A DNA stretch of 64,000 bases from assembly GCF_011745625.1 (NCBI RefSeq), contig NW_027191455.1:310001-374000 (forward strand), given 5' to 3'. Positions 16,386 to 58,605 of this stretch are shown here, in pieces. The notes beneath the pieces were generated by a model. That model was not told the origin of the DNA, did not search any database, and saw nothing but the letters and a program-made list of their open reading frames with translations. The position numbers were made by a program, and so were the translations under genes. The stretch is from Cladosporium halotolerans (lineage: Eukaryota). The first letter of the stretch is position 1; every line of letters begins with the position of its first letter.

Positions 16386-16877
16386 AAACCCTTTCGATGC
16401 TTTGATACATGAACGGAATACCTTGTAGCGATGCAAGTCAAAGGCTTTGCACGTGTCGGACTCTTCATTATCACAGCGACCCGTTTTCAGATTACATATC
16501 TGTTCTCAAGCATTAGGTTACATAACATCCATAGAGCTTTATCCAAGAACTGTATCACGTGATCCTTATCAGCAGTGAGGGCAAACTGCTTGAGCAACCC
16601 TGACCCACCCCACCCTGCCCACTCTTGGCAACGTGGACCAAAGGATTCCGATTCAAGATAACGTTTCCCAATCAATCTCAATCAATGTAATGCCCCTCAT
16701 GCTCCCGGCATCTGCCTATCGCTCATGCACATGATGGGATCCGGCAAGTCTACTCGGGCTCATGTTCGATGTAACCAGACGATAGGTCTGCCGTCAGTCT
16801 GGCCTGACGAGTTATCCAGCGCGATATTTGTCAAGTCTGTCTCATCAAACAATACAATCATTCCATAGGCTGCTTCA

Positions 16878-20064: not shown

Positions 20065-21632
20065 CTATGACTTTCCTTGAACTCGAGCAGGACTGTCCAC
20101 CTTCACCTCGTTGATCTCAGATCCGCCCCAGTGCCAAAAGCGGTCAACATCCTCCTCCACTTTGTAGCCAAGTAGCTGAGGGGACAAGCCAGAGTCTCTC
20201 CACGCGAGAGCCTCGCCTTCCTCCTTAGCCTGCATTGCTCGATCGCGCTCCTCCTGCTCTGGTCCATCATGCAAATGGTACAGCCACTGCTGTCTGTTGC
20301 CACGCTCTACGACCATCTCTGTCCGCGGTTTCCTGCATTGCTCGTAGATCGTTAGCAATCGCCGTTTCTCCGCCGGGTCACGAGGATTCGCGCTACGGCC
20401 GAATATTTCGCCCAGGACAGCGGCATCTTCGAGAGCCATGCCGGCACTGAGAATTCAATTAGCCTGGACATTGCTGCATTCAAGACTGGATATGACTTAC
20501 CCCGAAGCCAAATACGGAAGCGTAGCATGGACGGCATCGCCCAACAGAGTGAATGCGCCGGAGGGATGACTCCAAGAGTCCATGCCAGATCTAATGCATA
20601 GCCGCCACTTGTATACAGACTCACAAAGTGCTAGCAGTTTGGGAATTCGATGATCCCAGTCTTTGTAGAGAGCGCGCATCTCCTCGACATCACCTGCTAG
20701 GGTATTGGCGCCTGCAGGCATGTCATCAGGAACTAGCAGAACCATATTGAAGAGCTCGCCTCCGCGGAGGACGTAGTTGACTGGAGAAAGTCAGCTCTGG
20801 ACGCTCATCATGGATGTTCAAGCTTACCTGCGTGTGCATCTGGGCCCAGCCAGTAGTTAACTTGAGGGTCCGTCACGAACGAAGCCAATTCTGGATCTTT
20901 GAGCATTTCTTTTGTTGACAGAAGTAGTCTGTACGCAAGATCGCCAGTCAAGATTGGAGGGTCTTCTCGACCGAGCATTATCTCGCGCAAATTGCTGTTG
21001 ATGCCGTCTGCACCAATGACAAGGTCAACCACGTGTTGCTCCCCATTCTCCAACGTCAAAGTAGCAAAGTCGCCTTCTGAAGAAGGTTCAACATTGGAAA
21101 CTCTTGCTTTAGTTCTGATATTTGCGCCGAGTTCAGCAGCACGGTCGAGCAGGCAACGATGGAGATTGGCTCTGTGAAAGTCCCAGTAGAAGGTCCCAGG
21201 ATATTGCGCGGCGGACGTTGCGAAGTCCATGTGCGAAATGACCCCGCCCTTCCAATGGAGCATATTGACTCTCGAAGGTTTGGTCGAGTACTTGTCAAGA
21301 GCTTCTTTCATGCCCCACGATTGTAGTACGCGGCTGCTGTTCGGGAGCACCTGGATCCCAGCACCGACTTCGCCGATCTCGTTCGCGGCTTCGAATATCT
21401 GGACGTCGTGGCCTGCCAGAAGGAGAGAAATGGCCGCGCCAATACCTCCCAAACCGGCGCCCACGATGATGATCTAGTATGTATCAGCAGTGCGAACGCT
21501 GGCCATACGTGCAGCGCCTCCATGTCCAGGAACCCTGCAATGATAACGCAGCCATCGAGCATCGAGGGTACGTACCTTGAGTTTGGTGCCATCCTCGCGG
21601 CGCTGCTGGTCTTTTATTGGAATCGCAGCCAT
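20065..21632 (-). CDS. hxnX: FAD-dependent monooxygenase (salicylate hydroxylase / 6-hydroxynicotinate 3-monooxygenase family), HxnX-like; spliced
   Basis: FAD fingerprints GAGLGG, DLVIGADG and LLGDAVHATLPYLASG|AGMALEDA. ATG 21632 (MAAIPIKDQQRREDGTKLK) is followed by an intron. Confidence 0.85.
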
Positions 21633-22050: not shown

Positions 22051-22061
22051 CAAGAGTGGGG
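22051..22061 (+). promoter_or_regulatory. CAAGAGTGGGG, candidate HxnR-binding site upstream of hxnX
   Basis: Exact 11-mer that also occurs at 32837 and, reverse-complemented, at 36589 and 39847. Contains the GHGGGG core. Confidence 0.6.
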
Positions 22062-27970: not shown

Positions 27971-28611
27971 GAGGAAAACTTGGTGTCAAACGTTGACGAC
28001 GAATTCAAGGCACAAATTGGGGTTTTACCACCCTGATCTTCGAGACTCGAATATATCTATGTAATGGCTAATCAAGCCCATCCTCTATGCCGTGGCCAAT
28101 CATCTTCATGACTCTGCCAGAATGCTGAGAGTGGGGGAAAGCCTGAAAGCCGGGGGTCCTATCACGTTCATTGCGCCACAATCGGCGTGACAGATACGCA
28201 CCTGCTGTCTATCTCGACAGCAAGACCCATGTATGTCAGGCCTTTAGAAAGTGGCTAGAGCAGCGCGCAATGCTTTCCGCCAAGATACCAGTATTCACGG
28301 GCCCACCATTGCACCCTCTACTGATGTGGTCAGTCAATTCGAATGACGTGAGCAGAGGGCTTCCTGAGTGGACGCTTTCGCGATGCATGGACATCCACAT
28401 TGATTGCTGCGGAAGCTGCCTAGTTCGATTGTGACACCAATCACTTCGACGGATTAGGGAAAATGGGAGGCTCAACCAATGAGGACTTAGTCAAACATTG
28501 TTACCTTTGTTGCATCTTTAGTCTTGTGAGAACATCGATGATCGCTTTGGTACGACTTCGATACGTTCATTGGGAGAGTTTGAGCATGGCTAAATTTAAA
28601 TAATGACTCTT

Positions 28612-30718
28612 TCAAGCTTCCAGAAATCCAGCGAAATAGTCATCGATCCAAATCGCAGCTTCCTGGCCATTACCTTGGAGACCATGGTCCCACCGCTTCA
28701 GTGTCCCAACGTACCCATCTGGTCGAACAATTACTACTGCAACTTCGGAAACGTCCAGACCACCCAGCCAAGCTTGACTACAGCTTCGTACGCCGCCCAT
28801 CGCATTGGGGATATCGTCCAAGTAGAAAGCCCAACTACTGCTCTGGAGAAGAGGGTGTAGGTCCGCGATCTCCACAGTTGATTTCGGAGCTGTCGTGACG
28901 ACCGCAGGTGTGTACAGCCGCGAGACAGCAGTGTATCTTTGTGGCTGCATGTAGATGGCAGAATCTGGGATCGGCGTATTGAGTCTTCCATAGCTTGTCT
29001 CTGCAAGTGCCGACGCACGGTAGAGGCAAGACTGTTCATTGCCTCCAATGTAGTCAGAGACATTGTTGAGAAAAGTGGAAGCGGCGTGAACATCAGGCAC
29101 GAAGAAGAAAACCCTGAATTGACCAAGCATCGGTATGTCCAGCTGGAGGTCGAGAGGGTTGGCGTCGATGTATCTGGTGACTCGCGCAGGCGTGAGAAGG
29201 CATCCCGCTTTGAGCTGGCCTTTAGGAGTGGTTTCGGGCTGGTTGAGAACGTTGGCGTTGTACTTGACACCCGCCCCGGATATGAAGCTGATGTTATTCG
29301 AGAAGTTTTCGGCTAACGCTTTGTCGTCGCCAGCTGCGAAAGCATTCGCGTGTTCGAAATCAAAATTGACCAAATCCTGGGCAATCTTCCTACGCTCATG
29401 CTCATAAGTCGCGAGTAGCGACGGCTTAGCCAGGCCACGAAGGGCCAGATTGAGCTTCCAAGAGAGATTGAAAGTATCATGCATGCTCGTATTCATGCCC
29501 TGTGCGGCTTTTGGCGAGTGTGTGTGACAAGCCTGTGTAGTGTCAGCGCTCCAGGTAAGGCCCACTGCATGGTACATGGTGTCTTACATCTCCTGCCAGG
29601 AACACTCGGTTCGAGTCGTCTGAGAAGCCGCTTGCCACCCTCTGTCCAACTTTGTACACGGAGAACCACTCTGCAGAGAATGAGCGAGTGTACCTCCCAA
29701 GCATGCGAGGAATAACTCACCAATGCTGTCCCATTCTAGAGTATAAGGTGCAATGATCTCTCGAGCCCGACGGATCACAAATTCCTGCTTCTCTTGTTCG
29801 GAGGTGAATGAGGCTTCGAAGCCGGAGCTCAATTCGATGTAGAGTCGGGTCATGTTTCGTTCGCGAGGGATCAACAGGATCGTGCCTTTGGTCTCAGAAT
29901 GGATAACCACCTTTGACCAAAGATCCGGGAAATCAGTCTTGATGACACCATCCAACACTCCCCAGGGTGCTTTACTTGGCTCGCCTTCCATGGCAAGGTT
30001 GGGAATTGCTTTTCGGACTTTCGAATGCGCCCCATCGCAACCGACCAAATACTTCGTCTTCAGCAAAGTTGTTTGGCCCGACTTTGGACTGGTGTAAGAG
30101 ACCACAAGTGGATCAATGGCAGTCTCGCTGCTTGCATAGGTGACGAATGGGGAGCTGCGGTCGACCGCAACATTTCTCTCGGCCATGTCTGTCAACAATA
30201 CATCTTCCATCATGCCTTGGTGGACTAGCAGGATGTAGGGATCCTTGACATTGACACTCTCAGGATAATGTATTTCACGTCCAGTCCGGTGGAGCGACGC
30301 ATCGCTTGAAGAATTCTGACACCCGCGTCAGCGAGTACACTTAACAGTGGATTAGGTAGAAAGCCACACCCAGAAACAAATGTCATAGACTTTGACACCA
30401 TTGCGCAGAAGATCATCTCCGAGGTTTAACTGTCGCAATGTTTCTATCGACTTGGGTTGCAAGCCATCTGCCCTTCCAGTAGCAGTTTTGTCGGGTCTAT
30501 CGTCCAAGATTCTGCTTCTAATGCCGTAACGTGCCAGTGTGCATCTGAGCCCGTCGAGTCAGTCTATGCCGCATCTCTAATTACGATCGAACTTCTACCT
30601 ACGCGAGCATCAAACCTGCTGGGCCGGCGCCCGCAATGACGACGTCTTCGATATCAACGTTTCGGAACACATCGTTTCCAGCAATTGTAGAGTCGTCACC
30701 AAGGGCCATAGGTGCCAT
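28612..30718 (-). CDS. hxnV: Phenol 2-monooxygenase-family FAD monooxygenase, HxnV-like; ~4 introns
   Basis: ATG 30718 reads ...[12 protein letters not shown], then [44 protein letters not shown] and C-terminal VIVRPDGYV. The first three exons splice in frame by hand. Confidence 0.88.
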
Positions 30719-31210
30719 CCTGATGAGAGTGAATTTATTCAATGTGTTATTGTCGCCTCTCTCGCATAGATGAGATGACCTGACAATTAATGCATATTCT
30801 CCAAAGACCCGTACGTAGGTCGACCTACCGTGATCCCTCAGTCAACGATCCCTAGGCAGCTTGCAGTCCACGTTTAGCCACATGATCCCCCACTTCTGCG
30901 GGTTGGCCGGGTCTTACGCAGACATGAGCGGGTCCACTCCAGTCACTCGCAGGAAGGTTGTTTGTCAGATCAAGGGCAACGCGATAAGACAGAGAAGTCA
31001 TCCGCCGAGCGGCTTGTGCTGCCGCCCCAGGCTTGGCACCACCACGGCATGTATCTCTCCACAACATGGGATCGCGGCCATCGTTGCCGACGGGACAAAC
31101 GGAGCGACTCAATAGTGACAAATGTATAGCTGCTGCGAGCGTTTGATGGCTGAAATTACTGCAGTATTGCCGTTGCTCTTCGAACACTCCTTCAACCCTT
31201 AATGTTGCCC

Positions 31211-31240
31211 CGCGATAGCCTGCGATAGCCCGCGATAGCG
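31211..31240 (+). repeat. Three tandem 10-bp units (YGCGATAGCS), each with an HGATAR GATA-factor site
   Basis: Reads cgcgatagcc tgcgatagcc cgcgatagcg, about 500 bp upstream of the hxnV-like ATG. Confidence 0.8.
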
Positions 31241-31373
31241 TTGTACAGCATCATGGCACACACACATCCGGAGTGACACTGTTCGATACATGCGTATCTC
31301 CCAATTCTCTACCTCAATTTGCGTTCCCGTGACTAAAGATACCATCTTGCCTTGCGTTTGCTGCACACGAAGA

Positions 31374-32708
31374 TCACCAGGCGAGATTGGGCCTTTCAGC
31401 TGCACAACTTTCGACCTGAGAGCAGAACGCTTCGTCTTCGGCCCCTTTAGAAGATCCGACAGATGGCTTGGACTTTGCAGGCCAAATCTGTCTTCCTTCT
31501 TGCTGTTCAAGCTTCCAGTGCACCGACAAGGCCTCCCTCACACGTTGCTGGAAGAAGATATGGCCCTGAGGGTCAAATGTCAGTCACTGTGTGCGTAGTG
31601 TCCTGGTTGCATACGTACACTTTCTTTCCGCGGATGCAGTTGCCCTGATGTGAAGACGCCTGCCTCCAGGTTCACTTGGCTTCCCTCACACAAGGCTTTG
31701 TCTTCATCAAGGACCTGTTTGTAAAACTCGCAGATGTTGGCGAACTCCTGGTCACTCGCATTCTTATGGCGGTACACTTCGTTCTCAATCTTGCTTCTAG
31801 TTGCTGAGAGAGGTACCATGCGCTGAATGTAGAAGAAGTTATCCCTGTCATAGGTCAGCCGGCGGTGACGAAACTTGCGGATGCGTTGCAGTCGATGGCT
31901 TACGTGCAAGTCACAGAAGTCGTCGGATAGCAGAAGGTGATCGCTCTTCGAAATTGAGCATCACTCGACTCTTTGTTGAAAATGTAATGCCGCATCTGAG
32001 ATCCGGTGGGCTCAACGCGGTACTTGTTAAGATCCGACACGCCTGCAATCAAGGGTGTGAGGTGGCACAGTGATAGCACTCATTGTAGTTGTCGATCAAA
32101 GACTTCCAGTTCGCCGACACGTTCATGGACCAGCAGTGATCCAGCTTAAATTCTTCTTCAAACTTGAATTGGCTCATCATTTCCTCATCGACCCCTTCGT
32201 TGCTTTTCTCCCAGCTGATGTCAGGCTCACCGGCTTGTAGGTTCGCCCAGATGAAGCCAAATTTGTCGGTATGGATGTTGACAGGAAAGAGGCTTTGCTG
32301 TGACTTGTCAAATCCCTCCACAGTATCGAAACGTGGAGCCTTCGCAAGCTTTCCGTTAAGACCATAACTCCAGCCGTGGTATTTGCAACTGAGAATGGTG
32401 GCAGTACCACTTTCAGATTGCACAACCGGGAACGCTCGGTGGCGGCAAACATTATGGAACCCGTTGATCTTGCCCTGGCGGTCCCTAACAAGGAAGAAGG
32501 AGTAACCGGCTATGTTGAACTGCTGGTAGTCTCCGGCTTGCGAAAATCGAAGAGTGTGCGTGAGAAGTAGCCAGTCGCGTGAAAAGATGGCCCGGCGTTC
32601 CAATTCATACAGACTTTCTGCCTTGTACCAAGATGCGGGCAAGTTTCGAGGTATGTCATCATTGGCCGGGCAGTCCGAGTTTTGGCGGGTGAAGTAGTGC
32701 CACAACAT
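31374..32708 (-). CDS. Rieske [2Fe-2S] non-heme iron oxygenase alpha subunit (choline monooxygenase-like); 2 introns and an apparent 1-nt frameshift near 32053
   Basis: Rieske motif NVCRHRA...SCKYHGWSY and mononuclear Fe motif [20 protein letters not shown]. After the frameshift it continues [15 protein letters not shown]...[13 protein letters not shown]...GQLHP...RPNLAW*, stop at 31374. Confidence 0.85.
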
Positions 32709-32836
32709 GATGTCGTCAGGGTAAGTAGCTTAGCGATCAGTCTTACAATTTCGGGGAGTCAATGGCTAAGAAGTCTTTGCTTGGATAGCGCGAAGCCCTC
32801 CTTCTCTCAACATCGGTCGGTCAATACTAATACCTA

Positions 32837-32847
32837 CAAGAGTGGGG
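32837..32847 (+). promoter_or_regulatory. CAAGAGTGGGG, candidate HxnR-binding site upstream of the Rieske gene
   Basis: Exact copy of the cluster 11-mer about 130 bp upstream of the Rieske ATG, with AGATAG (GATA) at about 32860. Confidence 0.6.
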
Positions 32848-33338
32848 GGATTAGCGGGTAGATAGGCGTGAGCGGCTCGAGGAAGCCCTAGTTGCCGGTG
32901 ATAGCACTTGGCCTGTCAGACAAACTGCGAGGAATCTTGAGTCCATGACATTGTCTTGAATCCCGGTGAGTCCAATCGTTTAAGTTTTCTGCGCCACCTC
33001 GAGGGCTTTCTCGAAGGCAGGATCTCGATGCCAAATGACGAACTGCGCTAATGTCACCGTAGATTTCCAAGGGGCGGTTAATTATGCTCGAGGTGCGCAT
33101 AATTTGCGGATAATTGGTCGCTTCTTAAAATATTGACCAATGCAGCCAACTGCGTTCAAACGTCTTCAGCACAGTTCGTGTCGTTGGCACAAGGAACAGC
33201 ATTGCGAGAGGTTGCTGGAGATCAGCAGAAGAGCAGTTTGTTTTCCGAAAGCTTCCGTTCCGTCTTGTGCCGACTCACGCCTTTCTCCTTGCGCGACATG
33301 CGGCATTGTGATACAATCCGACCCATCTCATCAATTGG

Positions 33339-34204
33339 CTACCATTTTGTCACTCCGCCATCTACTAGGATATCCTGGCCCGTCATGTATTTGCTCGCGT
33401 CTGAGGCAAGGAATATACAGGCTCCACGAATGTCGTCTGGGTCCGCCACTGCTCCATTCATGATTTCGTCCTTCCAGTTTTCTAACAGTTGTGGAAATGG
33501 CGCTTTGGCATGTCAGTAAAAATGGACACGCAGTATCAGGACATTCTTACGCACCTGTCATTTCCGTTCGGACATAGCCGGGAGAGATGCTGTTGACTCT
33601 TATCCCGTGTTGCGCCAACTCCACTGCCATTGGTGGACACATCGACTTCACAGCACCCTTGGTGCCGCAGTAAGCACTGGACATTTGGCCTCGAACGGCT
33701 CTGGAAGCCGCAATGGATGCTACCATAACAATCGAGCCTTTGCTGGTCCTGTTGGCGATCATTGCTTTGGCAGCCAGTTGCGCCGTGAAGAATGCGCCTT
33801 TCACATTGACAGAATTCAGCTGATCGAATGCAGTTTCATCAGTCTCAGTGAAAGCCACGTTACGATTCGTTCCTGCGCAGACGACGCATATGTCCAAGGC
33901 TCCATTGGTCACCTTTAGAAAGGACGCGAAGGCCTCTCTGAGACTTGCCACCGAGCTCACATCCGCTTTGAAATCCCAAGTCTTGACAGAGTGTTTGGTG
34001 CTGATTAGGTGAAAGTCCGGAGAAGGATCTATGAGATCAAGTACGACGATGTCCGCCCCAGCTTCCGCGAGGCCCTCTGCAAAGGAGAGACCGCATCCTC
34101 TTGCGCCGCCTGTCACTACGGCGGTGCGGCCCTTGAGTGAGAACTATCGATCTTGTTAGCACAAAGCATCGACATACTGTGACATTTCGTACCCTTGCTA
34201 ACAT
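33339..34204 (-). CDS. hxnW: Short-chain dehydrogenase/reductase (polyol dehydrogenase-like), HxnW-like; 2 introns
   Basis: MLAR|FSLKGRTAVVTGGARGCG (TGxxxGxG), catalytic YCGTK, IRVNSISPGY and C-terminal YMTGQDILVDGG. The start exon is tentative. Confidence 0.85.
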
Positions 34205-34559
34205 TGAGAGAACGTCGTTCCTGCTGATGAACCTACGATCTAGATTGTTGCGAGGTCCCCTTTGCTCAAATAGTCTCTTTCAAAGGACTGATGGCTATTC
34301 AAGCCATAGGTGGACGCCCCCCACCTGCTACCCACTTCTCGCCACATCTTGCTCTGACGGCCCATGGTATCGGTAGACACCTGAGGGTACCTGAAACTAC
34401 GTGCGACTCCTATACAGGTGCCACACATGTGGTCAGACACGCAATTTGCAATGGTACGCATGTTGATTTCGTCCTCTCTTGGTGACTCCTTGCCGTCGTT
34501 GCAATCGTGAAACCCCCATCTACTGACCTGCAGTGCTGTATCCAGCCAAGCGGTGTGTC

Positions 34560-36588: not shown

Positions 36589-36599
36589 CCCCACTCTTG
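36589..36599 (-). promoter_or_regulatory. CCCCACTCTTG (reverse of CAAGAGTGGGG) in the hxnP/hxnY divergent promoter
   Basis: Exact reverse-complement copy. A second core (AGCAGTGGGG) lies at 36383-36392. Confidence 0.6.
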
Positions 36600-38376: not shown

Positions 38377-39666
38377 CTATAGCCGTGCAATGCCAAATCC
38401 ATCCCTCCTTCGAAGGCCCAAAAACTTCTTGTCGATGCCTCGGATGTTGGGGATCCCTGCTAATGCCATGGTCCTAGATAGTTCGCGCTCCAGAATGTTG
38501 GCCACCAGCTCAACGCCTATCTGCCCATCGTAAGCCAGGCCCCACAGAACGGGTCTTCCGACAAGGACGAGATCTGCACCCAAAGCGATCGCCTTGAAGA
38601 CATCACTGCCGTGCCTGACGCCTCCGTCGAAAAGGATCGGTATCTGCCCTTTGGTTGCGGCCGCAATGGATGGGAGTGCTTCAATCGTTGCCGGCGCAGA
38701 GTCAAGCTGTCTGCCTCCGTGGTTCGATACAACAATGGCGTCGACTCCATGTTTGACCGCCAACTCGGCGTCTTCCTCAGTCATCACGCCTTTGAGAATG
38801 ATCTTCATAGAAGTCGCACTTCGTAGCCAACTGATGGTCTCGGTCCACGTCAGCGAGGAGCTGTGAATACTACCTCCTGCATCTCGCACCACCTGCTTCG
38901 CTTGAGCTGCTGTTGGCGCATCTAATAGTTGCCGCTCTTGACTTGGTCTGTAGTTATCGGCTTTGGTCTTCTCTGAACCTTTGTAATTAGCAAGATGAAG
39001 ATTCGAGGGCAGGACGAGAGGCGTCTTTCGTTCGTTGATACGGTTTCCGAGGAGCGGCGTGTCAACAGTGATCACCAGAGCTGTATATCCAGCATCTACC
39101 ACCTGTCAGCAAAATGACGAGAAGTTAGCTCGGATTGAACTGTCTCACTTGCTGCTCTCTTAATCAAGGGAGTGCTAAGAGCTGAATTTTCGGTCACATA
39201 GAGCTGGAACCACCGCTCGGGTCCATCGGGTGTATTTGGCATCAACGATGCAATGTCTTCGAGAGATGTTGTCGACTGCGACGAAATCGTCATATTGACC
39301 CCGAGTCTTTGCGCGGCCCGTGCAACGCTCTCTTCGCCTTGCGGGTGAGCGAGCTTCTGCATTGCAGAGGGAGCAAAAGCGATTGGAAAAGGGTATTCCA
39401 CGCTGAACAAACGTGTGGAAGTATCAACTTTTGATACGTCAACCATCACTCTCGGCCGGATGAGGATGCTTTAAAAGGTATAAGTCCATGCTCGTTTGTA
39501 TTGCGTGAAGGCGCACCAACCGGTCAAAAGCCGCTCGGTTCCGAATCAGACATTTCTGATCGTCCGCTCCGGATGCATAGTAGTCGTAGACATTTTTCGG
39601 TAACTTTTGTCTCGCGAGGGATTCCAGTTCATCGATCGTGACAGGGTTCACGATCGTCTCCGCCAT
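38377..39666 (-). CDS. FMN-dependent (S)-2-hydroxy-acid oxidase (glycolate/long-chain hydroxy-acid oxidase family), C-terminal PTS1 ARL; 2 introns
   Basis: YDYYASGADD, ILIRPRVMVDV, APSAMQKLAH, ITVDTPLLGNR, ILKGV, VSNHGGRQLD, DGGVRHGSDV and GRPVLWGL. No cytochrome b5 domain. Exons splice in frame. Confidence 0.9.
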
Positions 39667-39846
39667 ATCGTCCAGTTCTTGTCATCCGATGCCTATTCAC
39701 TCAATTGACGATTGCAGCATTCATTACAAAATCCAATAAGTATCGACACTAGAACAATGCCATTGTGGGTCAACCATTCTACAACCGCTAGGGTAGCGCT
39801 TGTTTACGTGGCCTGTCGTCGCCATCCCCCACCCGTCCGCCTGACT

Positions 39847-39857
39847 CCCCACTCTTG
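39847..39857 (-). promoter_or_regulatory. CCCCACTCTTG in the divergent promoter of the hydroxy-acid oxidase and SnoaL-like genes
   Basis: Exact reverse-complement copy of the cluster 11-mer, with a second CCCCAC core at 39827-39832. Confidence 0.6.
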
Positions 39858-40045
39858 ACATTTGCGAACCGATACGGCCGCTCCATAACCCACCAGCCTG
39901 CGGAATTGAGCAGCGAGTGGAGGAGACAACAGGGATGGACAGGTTCAATCACTGAATCGATATGTAAGTCGAAGCTTTGTGTCGATGCAACCCAGATCGA
40001 AGACCACCCTCGCCGCCAGAGCAGATGCCGACCAATTAGTATTCC

Positions 40046-40513
40046 TTGGCCACTTATATCAACCAGTGTGTGCTCACGCTATATGTCAGACTTTCAGCCA
40101 TACTGATCAACGACTTAGTGGGCGATCAAGAAGCGATCACCAGTCTTTTACATTCCTATGGCGACGTCCTTTCTTCACGCTCTCTCGCAGATGTTCTATC
40201 AATCTACACATCAGATGGCGTTTTCATGGCACCTGGATACCAGCCTTCAGTCGGTACAGATGCATTGAAGGCGTCATACAAACGCATCTTCTCAACCATC
40301 AAGCTGGATATTGAGTTCAGCATCAACGAAATAGTGGTGATGGATGGTGTATCATGGGCGTTTGCGGGAACCACAGCAGAAGGCACTAAGCATTGGCTGC
40401 AGAAGGAAACCGATGAGAGCCATCACAACCAAGAGATATTTGTTTGTCAAAAGGTTGATGGAGACTGGAAGATTGCGAGATACTGCTTTTCCAGTATGAA
40501 ACCATTGACTTAG
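40046..40513 (+). CDS. SnoaL/NTF2-like (DUF4440-type) small protein; true start uncertain, probably a small upstream exon
   Basis: DQEAITSLLHSY...IYTSDGVFMAPG..SVGTDALKASYKRIF...NQEIFVCQKVDGDWKIARYCFSS follows the ketosteroid-isomerase-like pattern. The ORF-track start is a TTG. Confidence 0.75.
   Translation: MATYINQCVLTLYVRLSAILINDLVGDQEAITSLLHSYGDVLSSRSLADVLSIYTSDGVFMAPGYQPSVGTDALKASYKRIFSTIKLDIEFSINEIVVMDGVSWAFAGTTAEGTKHWLQKETDESHHNQEIFVCQKVDGDWKIARYCFSSMKPLT

Positions 40514-58572: not shown

Positions 58573-58605
<33 letters not shown>

Follow-up and report, generated by a model that had tools for sequence, protein, structure and literature searches.

In a stretch of 64,000 nucleotides of the Cladosporium halotolerans genome (contig NW_027191455.1 of assembly GCF_011745625.1, positions 310,001 to 374,000; hereafter called the window), a gene for a Rieske/non-haem-iron oxygenase was identified on the minus strand at 31374..32708. 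It is embedded in a block of genes that resembles the hxn cluster of the fungal nicotinate pathway. From the comparisons described below, the gene is predicted to be a genuine, accessory resident of this cluster and to encode a group V Rieske oxygenase with a function in its context, a reading that, taken as a whole, has slightly better than even chances. The fungal nicotinate pathway has been presented as complete with 11 genes (PMC8478523). A Rieske gene has so far not been described as a resident of the hxn cluster, and thus a known kind of enzyme was found in a new pathway context. The gene offers a concrete candidate for a second entry into the pathway, e.g., from trigonelline, an abundant plant betaine.

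The gene model was derived from alignments of homologues to the DNA and from the reading of splice signals, and Pfam matches, tblastn and an end-to-end alignment underlie it. It comprises three exons with 407 codons plus the stop codon. Exon 1 (31904..32708, ATG at 32708) encodes the Rieske domain and the beginning of the catalytic domain, exon 2 (31619..31844) continues the catalytic domain including the Asp ligand, and exon 3 (31374..31565) encodes a eukaryote-type C-terminal tail that ends L-A-W, with the stop codon at 31374-31376. Intron 1 (31845..31903, 59 nt) has the signals GTAAGC...CTGAC...AG, and the frame change that it introduces agrees with tblastn; intron 2 (31566..31618, 53 nt) has the signals GTACGT...CTGAC...CAG. 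All 407 codons were colinear with eight orthologues, including the final residue of the C-terminal LAW. A Pfam search of the minus-strand open reading frames (ORFs) of 31374-32729 yielded matches to Rieske (PF00355, 1.7e-15) and to Ring_hydroxyl_A (PF00848, 4.1e-09 and 1e-06), and the PF00848 matches were found on either side of a frame break that is treated below.

The ligand motifs of the Rieske [2Fe-2S] cluster occupy 32370..32447 on the minus strand, i.e., CRHR at 32436-32447 (codons 88-91) and CKYHGW at 32370-32387 (codons 108-113). The mononuclear-iron motif at 32053..32090 (minus strand) contains a pi-cation Tyr, a bridging Glu, a Cys pair and two His ligands, and the Asp iron ligand is part of LDEDKALC in exon 2 (31688..31711, minus strand). 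The 2-His-1-carboxylate triad is complete, with the H-x4-H of ECYHCATSH and the Asp of LDEDK corresponding by alignment to H208, H213 and D323 of CntA. Every metal ligand is therefore present in the predicted protein, as the initial annotation of this stretch had stated. The closest intact orthologue, located on metagenome contig L008, has five exons and the terminus DLAW. It contains two introns (1136-1181 and 1315-1428) that are absent from exon 1 of the window and from four related sequencing runs, and one of these additional introns directly follows ...SHPL, beside the site of the frame break in the window.

The assignment to an enzyme class was based on solved relatives and on individual residues. 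For the orthologue P0003 the top solved relative was CntA, the oxygenase subunit of carnitine monooxygenase (6y8j, 1.7e-36, residues 20-342), followed by the stachydrine demethylase Stc2 (3vca, 1.3e-33), which matched chiefly in the N-terminal half. Group V Rieske oxygenases act on quaternary amines and are marked by a bridging Glu (E205), and subgroup Va has an aromatic residue (Y203) in pi-cation contact with the substrate (PMC7948474). A Cys-x-x-Cys pair adjoining the iron site has been described as a further feature of group V (PMC10952381). The Y-N-E-C-Y-H-C-x3-H of the window corresponds position by position to Y203, E205, C206, H208, C209 and H213 of CntA. In the 58-row clade of fungal proteins that includes the window protein (see below), the first of these positions is occupied by Y in 55 and by F in 3 members, and the others by E, C, H, C and H, each in all 58. 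The bridging Glu, the aromatic pi-cation residue and the Cys pair are thus all in place, which supports the earlier assignment to the Rieske group that acts on quaternary ammonium compounds.

The substrate pocket of CntA (Y203, Y225, F258, N270, Y295, Y315, F319) is kept in four of seven positions, while N270 is replaced by S, Y295 by N and F319 by L. At three pocket positions the clade has F in 56 of 58, N in 46 of 58 and Y in 58 of 58 members, and 63 fungal paralogues have at those three positions L/M/I, Y (63 of 63) and F (41) or Y (22). The equivalog model NF058607 (NCBIfam) for GbcA, a glycine betaine monooxygenase, yielded 135.6 bits with P0003, 129.7 bits with window exon 1 and 144.8 bits with P0147, compared to a cut-off of 670 bits. 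Judged by its residues and by this score, the protein is a group V Rieske oxygenase with a pocket of its own, neither CntA nor GbcA.

With CntA/YeaW (group Va) it shares the Y-x-E-C-x-H-C-x3-H motif, the Asp ligand and the pocket residues Y225, F258 and Y315. It differs from CntA in that Y295, described as a polar substrate contact of the latter, is N in the fungal protein, that about 65 C-terminal residues of the fungal protein form a tail outside the alignment, and that no gene for a CntB-type reductase is near the fungal gene, which stands in a context of pyridine catabolism and not of carnitine. GbcA and Stc2 (group Vb) belong to the same group and also have the bridging Glu and the Cys pair; they N-demethylate carboxylate betaines, which is the chemistry that is proposed here for trigonelline. 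In contrast, Stc2 has an Asn at the pi-cation position, where the fungal protein has an aromatic residue, and it aligns well only in its N-terminal half. Plant choline monooxygenase, the UniRef name of the fungal clade, is a plastidial and ferredoxin-using enzyme. By its description in PMC7948474 it belongs to group Va and has a Tyr at the pi-cation position; it is likewise a eukaryotic Rieske enzyme, and the fungal protein differs in its hxn-cluster context.

Of 57 clade members, 52 have a W as the last residue of the C-terminal tail (about 65 residues), and 35 of these end with LAW. A C-terminal [LIM]-[DES]-[WF] recruits the cytosolic Fe-S assembly complex (CIA), and choline monooxygenase (cytosolic forms) is listed among the bearers of this signal (PMC10623007). 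In the L-A-W of the window the positions -2 and 0 fit the motif, while the middle residue does not. The L-x-W tail thus resembles the CIA signal described in that source, and it would fit a cytosolic enzyme that is matured by the CIA system.

The content of the surrounding block (about 15-40 kb) was derived by searching the reading frames of the window against Pfam and PDB. By its predicted domains, the block of about 25 kb is the hxn set described in PMC8478523 minus hxnS, i.e., it contains hxnT-, hxnR-, hxnX-, hxnM-, hxnN-, hxnV-, hxnW- and hxnY-like genes. The Rieske gene is located in its middle. Its downstream neighbour is an hxnV-like gene for a phenol-hydroxylase-type FAD monooxygenase (FAD_binding_3 plus Phe_hydrox_dim; 28612..30770, minus strand, 5' end approximate), and its upstream neighbour is an hxnW-like gene for a short-chain dehydrogenase/reductase (SDR; 33339..34260, minus strand, 5' end approximate). 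The hxnV assignment was backed by 64 long HxnV-like matches, and in some of these models hxnV is merged with an amidase or an Old Yellow Enzyme. The mid-cluster position and the common orientation on the minus strand, on which the initial annotation had relied, were thus confirmed. For hxnS and for partner proteins, all 91 stop-to-stop ORFs of at least 95 amino acids over 14.0-41.5 kb and the longest ORFs of at least 150 amino acids elsewhere in the window were scanned, a procedure that can miss short exons. No domain of the xanthine-dehydrogenase type (hxnS) was detected among the scanned ORFs of the 64-kb window; hxnS may be located elsewhere in this genome.

The adjacency to the hxnW SDR, which was observed here and in Aureobasidium, would also suit a side-entry or detoxifying step at 2-pyridone, 2,5-dihydroxypyridine or a related ring, possibly with the SDR as partner. 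A bacterial precedent exists in HpoBCDF/HpoE, a Rieske dioxygenase and a dihydrodiol dehydrogenase that reportedly lead to 2,3,6-trihydroxypyridine. Furthermore, unidentified redundant enzymes and toxic intermediates have been reported for the pathway (PMC9304392). However, the protein has the group V hallmarks (pi-cation Tyr and bridging Glu) and not those of the ring-dihydroxylating groups I-IV, no beta subunit is present, and a step is already assigned to HxnW, the orthologue of this SDR. A hydroxypyridine step is thus regarded as very improbable.

The promoter of the Rieske gene contains the 11-mer that the initial annotation had described as common to the cluster, CAAGAGTGGGG. Four exact copies are present in the window, starting at 22051, 32837, 36589 and 39847. 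The exact copy at 32837..32847 (plus strand) is antisense to the Rieske gene and precedes its ATG by 128 nt. The others are located upstream of the hxnX-like gene (22051..22061, plus strand), in the divergent promoter of a major facilitator superfamily (MFS) gene and the hxnY-like gene (36589..36599, minus strand), and in the divergent FMN_dh/SnoaL promoter (39847..39857, minus strand). When up to one mismatch was allowed, 8 matches were found compared to 1.43 expected, a number that was reached in none of 100 shuffles, and 7 of the 8 fall in the region of 16.6-39.9 kb. The 9-mer core AGAGTGGGG was additionally found in front of the first MFS gene, at 28128. Sites of the word or its core are at 16617, 17908, 22051, 28128, 32837, 36589, 37864 and 39847, two of them (17908 and 37864) inside coding sequence, and the word with its core marks the hxnR-, hxnX-, MFS1-, Rieske-, MFS2/hxnY- and FMN_dh/SnoaL-like promoters.

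The positions 32837-32847 were found to be free of variation among the four related runs. On L008, an exact copy of CAAGAGTGGGG is present at 6785-6795 in the orthologous hxnY/MFS intergenic region, and a copy with two mismatches, CAGAAGTGGGG, precedes the Rieske ATG by about 130 nt and is oriented as in the window. This copy aligns with that of the window, while the remainder of the promoter has diverged. The number of words on L008 is by itself not significant (3 matches compared to 2.02 expected). The HxnR-type C2H2 factor probably binds at this word, and a candidate HxnR site is thus provided. A literature search did not retrieve a binding site of HxnR: in the 2017 hxn paper none was found outside the references, and the term 'HxnR binding' is absent from the 2021 paper.

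A search with the exon 1 protein retrieved 801 proteins, and the merged models described next are from the best 120 of these 801. The best two matches (71-72% identity) were merged models of Rachicladosporium and Oleoguttula, in which the Rieske protein is followed by HxnV, as in the order of the window. In a merged model of Aureobasidium melanogenum the Rieske protein is joined with an HxnW-like SDR, and in merged models of Talaromyces stipitatus and of five representatives of Aspergillus section Flavi with an HxnX-like protein. A reverse search with HxnX yielded 11 long HxnX-like models, 6 of them with a Rieske domain. A. flavus has separate models for the Rieske protein (AFLA_005413) and for an FAD enzyme of 458 amino acids (AFLA_005414), and their tags and accession numbers are adjacent. 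The FAD enzyme ends ESRL, in agreement with the SRL signal reported for HxnX (PMC13705651).

A phylogeny among Rieske oxygenases, which the initial annotation had suggested as a check, was calculated with 121 rows. The window protein and all 9 hxn-merged models were placed within one clade of 58 rows (SH-aLRT 100, stem 0.32), which has members from the Pezizomycotina classes Dothideomycetes, Sordariomycetes and Eurotiomycetes. Seven other multi-domain models (cupin, Fungal_trans) fell into paralogue clades outside of it. In addition, metagenome contigs were scanned, which yielded 80 loci; a FastTree tree assigned 4 of the 43 placeable loci to the clade, and the other 39 fell outside of it. L008 was the sole one of the 4 clade loci with informative flanks, and there the Rieske gene lies beside orthologues of MFS1 (80%), hxnY (82%) and MFS2 (90%), in an order unlike that of the window. 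Among the paralogue loci of at least 6.5 kb, 0 of 20 had a close hxn neighbour, the nearest case being an FMN_dh with 30% identity on L035.

In a tree of 31 rows T. stipitatus was sister to section Flavi (94/89), and a single Aspergillus clade was rejected by the approximately unbiased (AU) test with a p-AU of 0.009 for a group that had been chosen after the first tree was seen. A transfer of the whole hxn cluster from Talaromyces to Flavi has been proposed in section 2.9 of PMC8478523, and the Rieske phylogeny, as inferred from these trees, mirrors it. As a refuting observation the initial annotation had named orthologues that are generally unlinked to hxn genes. This does not apply to several lineages, a minor part of the clade, in which linkage was found.

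The local copy of the gene is interrupted by a deletion of 1 nt at 32052. The site (32050..32053, gene on the minus strand) has three G on the plus strand, compared to four in 4 of 4 related runs, and it is located between the codons for ...SHP and LIAG.... The comparison was performed with Logan contigs of four runs (X2, X3, X6 and X13) from four studies over 31200-33000. In all four runs the extra base restores the frame, in accordance with the broken frame that was implied when the initial annotation spoke of a frame-repaired gene. The indel at 32052 was the sole indel across the 1.8 kb compared. Apart from the deletion, a classification of the 36 listed substitutions revealed one change that is private to the window, P346H, which hits a clade-invariant Pro.

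The nearest runs, X2 and X3, differ from the window by 7 substitutions. They have in common the nonsense change G119* (C>A at 32354, GGA to TGA), with the frame at 32052 kept, and additionally T269S and I105V, both at conserved positions. In X6 a single contig contains the entire gene, which is free of stops and shows 5 non-synonymous and 5 synonymous changes. X13 has no stop in the covered portion (31701-31747 is uncovered). Among the sequencing runs listed for this stretch none is recorded as RNA; X13 is guessed to be an RNA run, and its contigs pass through intron 1 unspliced and without joints. Two independent disabling changes are thus present within the sublineage of the window, X2 and X3, while the more distant relatives are intact, which points to a recent decay in this sublineage. 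As an alternative, the deletion in the window may be an assembly error at a short homopolymer.

For the intact enzyme the following mechanism is proposed. The gene product would be the oxygenase subunit of a group V (CntA/choline-monooxygenase-like) Rieske monooxygenase, would be co-regulated with the hxn genes through CAAGAGTGGGG, and would receive its electrons from a reductase that is encoded elsewhere. It would hydroxylate the carbon adjoining the charged ring nitrogen or methyl nitrogen of an N-alkylpyridinium carboxylate, and the resulting nicotinate or 6-hydroxynicotinate would feed the Hxn pathway, with the steps as given in PMC9304392. An N-methylpyridinium substrate is a tentative proposal, which falls short of even chances. 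Within it, trigonelline (N-methylnicotinate) is the leading guess and the candidate substrate. For comparison, the first trigonelline step of Acinetobacter baylyi is reportedly catalyzed by TgnAB, in which a separate reductase accompanies the oxygenase (Perchat et al. 2018, PNAS), and is said to be a ring opening and not a demethylation. The initial annotation had proposed the gene as a candidate new entry enzyme. The part of this proposal that stands is a cluster resident with the shared promoter word; a working copy in this genome is improbable, given the frameshift and the nonsense allele of the relatives.

A nicotinate product requires HxnS, and the window is devoid of hxnS, and therefore readings with direct formation of 6-hydroxynicotinate or with an unrelated betaine have to be kept in mind. 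One such possibility is that the enzyme acts as a surrogate of HxnS and converts nicotinate, or trigonelline at C6, with O2 to 6-hydroxynicotinate without a molybdenum enzyme. This would agree with the window, in which no ORF of the xanthine-dehydrogenase type was seen. According to section 2.4 of PMC8478523, section Flavi, Talaromyces and most Penicillium have no hxnS and keep hxnR and the remaining cluster, and the taxa listed there as hxnS-less are those in which the Rieske gene abuts hxnX. Enzymes of the CntA type hydroxylate the carbon beside a charged nitrogen (PMC7948474). On the other hand, the clade is also present in sections Nigri and Nidulantes, which keep hxnS according to PMC8478523, and hxnS is possibly elsewhere in this genome. 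In addition, decay of the gene beside intact-looking hxnX, hxnV and hxnW would be odd for a sole entry enzyme. To our knowledge, alpha-hydroxylation of a pyridine ring next to the nitrogen is always catalyzed by a molybdenum hydroxylase with water. A role as HxnS surrogate is thus judged to be quite improbable.

A broader speculation is that the Rieske clade represents the missing entry enzyme, O2-dependent and molybdenum-independent, of the hxnS-less clusters in Flavi, Talaromyces, most Penicillium and this Dothideomycete, and that it converts nicotinate or trigonelline to 6-hydroxynicotinate. This is considered unlikely. If it were true, a Rieske enzyme that alpha-hydroxylates or dealkylates a pyridinium ring would be found for the first time in a eukaryote, and the retention of an HxnR-controlled pathway without a nicotinate hydroxylase would be explained. 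In PMC8478523 it is inferred that the hxnS-less fungi use only 6-hydroxynicotinate.

Several observations weigh against the prediction of an accessory hxn-cluster oxygenase. The regulon of A. nidulans, as listed in PMC8478523, has 11 genes (S, T, R, P, Y, Z, X, W, V, M and N), and a Rieske gene is not among them, and the 90% cluster of close relatives contained no entry from A. nidulans. Linkage was seen in part of the clade, and not for the 26 rows from Sordariomycetes or for sections Nigri and Nidulantes. In 40 of the 64 long HxnV-like models hxnV is joined straight to the SDR without a Rieske gene in between. On L001, another clade locus, an AMP-binding-like gene and not an hxn gene is the downstream neighbour; upstream, the sequence extends over 166 nt only. 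Among the scanned ORFs no domain of a ferredoxin, an FNR-type reductase or cytochrome b5 was found, and thus the earlier statement that the window encodes no reductase or ferredoxin partner held for these ORFs, with short exons missable. If the cluster is truly without HxnS, nicotinate formed from trigonelline would not feed it. The strict form [LIM]-[DES]-[WF] of the CIA signal was present in 7 of 57 clade members.

Further points of this kind come from the decay of the local copy. Between the window and X2/X3, 4 substitutions were found in the coding sequence, all of them protein-changing and 0 synonymous. Over all four runs there were 13 non-synonymous compared to 8 synonymous coding variants, and this suggests that the constraint on the gene is no more than moderate. 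That 4 of 4 coding changes between the window and X2/X3 are non-synonymous points to neutral decay of a dispensable gene. The local copy is thus most likely a pseudogene of recent origin, belonging to an accessory step that can be dispensed with, unless the deletion is an assembly error.

These observations also bear on a reading in which the enzyme is an oxygenase of the betaine, choline or carnitine type with a non-pyridine quaternary amine as substrate, and its position in the hxn cluster is a historical accident of rearrangement or transfer. The characterized group V members described in PMC7948474 all act on aliphatic or alicyclic quaternary amines, and the clade is labelled 'choline monooxygenase' in databases. 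The clade is present in many Sordariomycetes, many of which have lost the hxn cluster (PMC8478523), and the non-hxn neighbour on L001 and the dispensability of the gene in this lineage point in the same direction. In contrast, the linkage recurs in at least four arrangements (with hxnV, hxnW, hxnX and an hxn transporter) and in two classes, and it was found for 0 of 20 paralogue contigs. Moreover, the cluster word is present in the promoter with conserved distance and orientation, and the pocket is unlike those of both CntA and the fungal paralogues. Such an unrelated oxygenase is thus considered rather unlikely. If the enzyme should nevertheless be unrelated to pyridines, the finding would shrink to another 'additional gene' in a plastic cluster. 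If, instead, the predicted function in the hxn cluster is true, a large fungal family labelled 'choline monooxygenase' would receive its first functional assignment.

In a word search of the hxn-cluster literature that was found, the term 'Rieske' was absent, although supplementary cluster maps may contain the gene without a label. This agrees with the claim of the initial annotation that no Rieske enzyme belongs to the characterized pathway. The 'additional genes' in section 2.5 of PMC8478523 are nfsA, pfdB, a kinase gene, a phosphorylase-like gene and an amidase gene, and a Rieske gene is not named in that section. The Rieske gene resembles these genes in that it is also present in the clusters of some taxa only and travels with the cluster. 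A literature search for a characterized fungal member of this Rieske family retrieved none, and a mention of the A. niger orthologue An07g00790 was not found.

The 40 models that join hxnV to the SDR are from representatives of the Eurotiales and represent a systematic annotation error by which hxnV and hxnW are merged. In PMC8478523 it is remarked that the database model of hxnV is wrong, in agreement with these mergers. L001 was also considered for a test of hxnX adjacency and was uninformative, because with 166 nt upstream no C-terminus of HxnX is detectable.

The remaining genes of the block are arranged as follows. At its left edge, an hxnT-like gene of the Old Yellow Enzyme type (15.0-16.4 kb) and an hxnR-like gene for a Fungal_trans regulator (17-19.8 kb) are located on the plus strand. 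Then follow, on the minus strand, an hxnX-like gene for a decarboxylating FAD hydroxylase (20125-21533; its PDB matches include 6-hydroxynicotinate 3-monooxygenase, 2.6e-24), an hxnM-like gene for an HpPgdA-like CE4 hydrolase (22.4-23.4 kb; 3qbu, 2.2e-67), an hxnN-like amidase gene (23.7-25.3 kb) and the gene for the first MFS transporter (26.3-27.8 kb). To the right of hxnW, the gene for the second MFS transporter (34.5-36.1 kb, minus strand) precedes an hxnY-like gene for a 2-oxoglutarate-Fe(II) dioxygenase (36.8-38.1 kb, plus strand), a gene for an FMN-dependent dehydrogenase (FMN_dh; 38377-39681, minus strand), the product of which ends ARL, and a SnoaL-like gene (40040-40510, plus strand).

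An apparent damage of hxnV, i.e., an in-frame stop and a frame change, could be ruled out, as both are accounted for by two canonical introns. Likewise, the stops within the hxnX alignment are both inside an in-frame intron of 54 nt and do not represent damage. Once introns are allowed for, hxnX, hxnV and hxnW of the window appear intact. The hxnX-like protein of the window ends ...QGKS, while the HxnX orthologues of A. flavus and Penicillium end ESRL, a peroxisomal signal. Because of the QGKS end in place of ESRL, HxnX may be localized differently in this genome.

The FMN_dh neighbour was considered as an electron donor in the manner of PfdB via cytochrome b5, and this idea was dropped, as the gene begins at the FMN_dh domain and a match to b5 was not obtained. 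This gene at the edge of the cluster is thus without a cytochrome b5 domain, unlike PfdB as described in PMC8478523, and its ARL end is a tripeptide of the peroxisomal type. As a guess, it might oxidize alpha-hydroxyglutarate, the end product of the pathway. The SnoaL-like gene is outside the published hxn set; it is divergent from FMN_dh and starts from the promoter with the fourth exact 11-mer. Far outside the cluster, a short (CGA)n trinucleotide repeat is present at 58576-58600.

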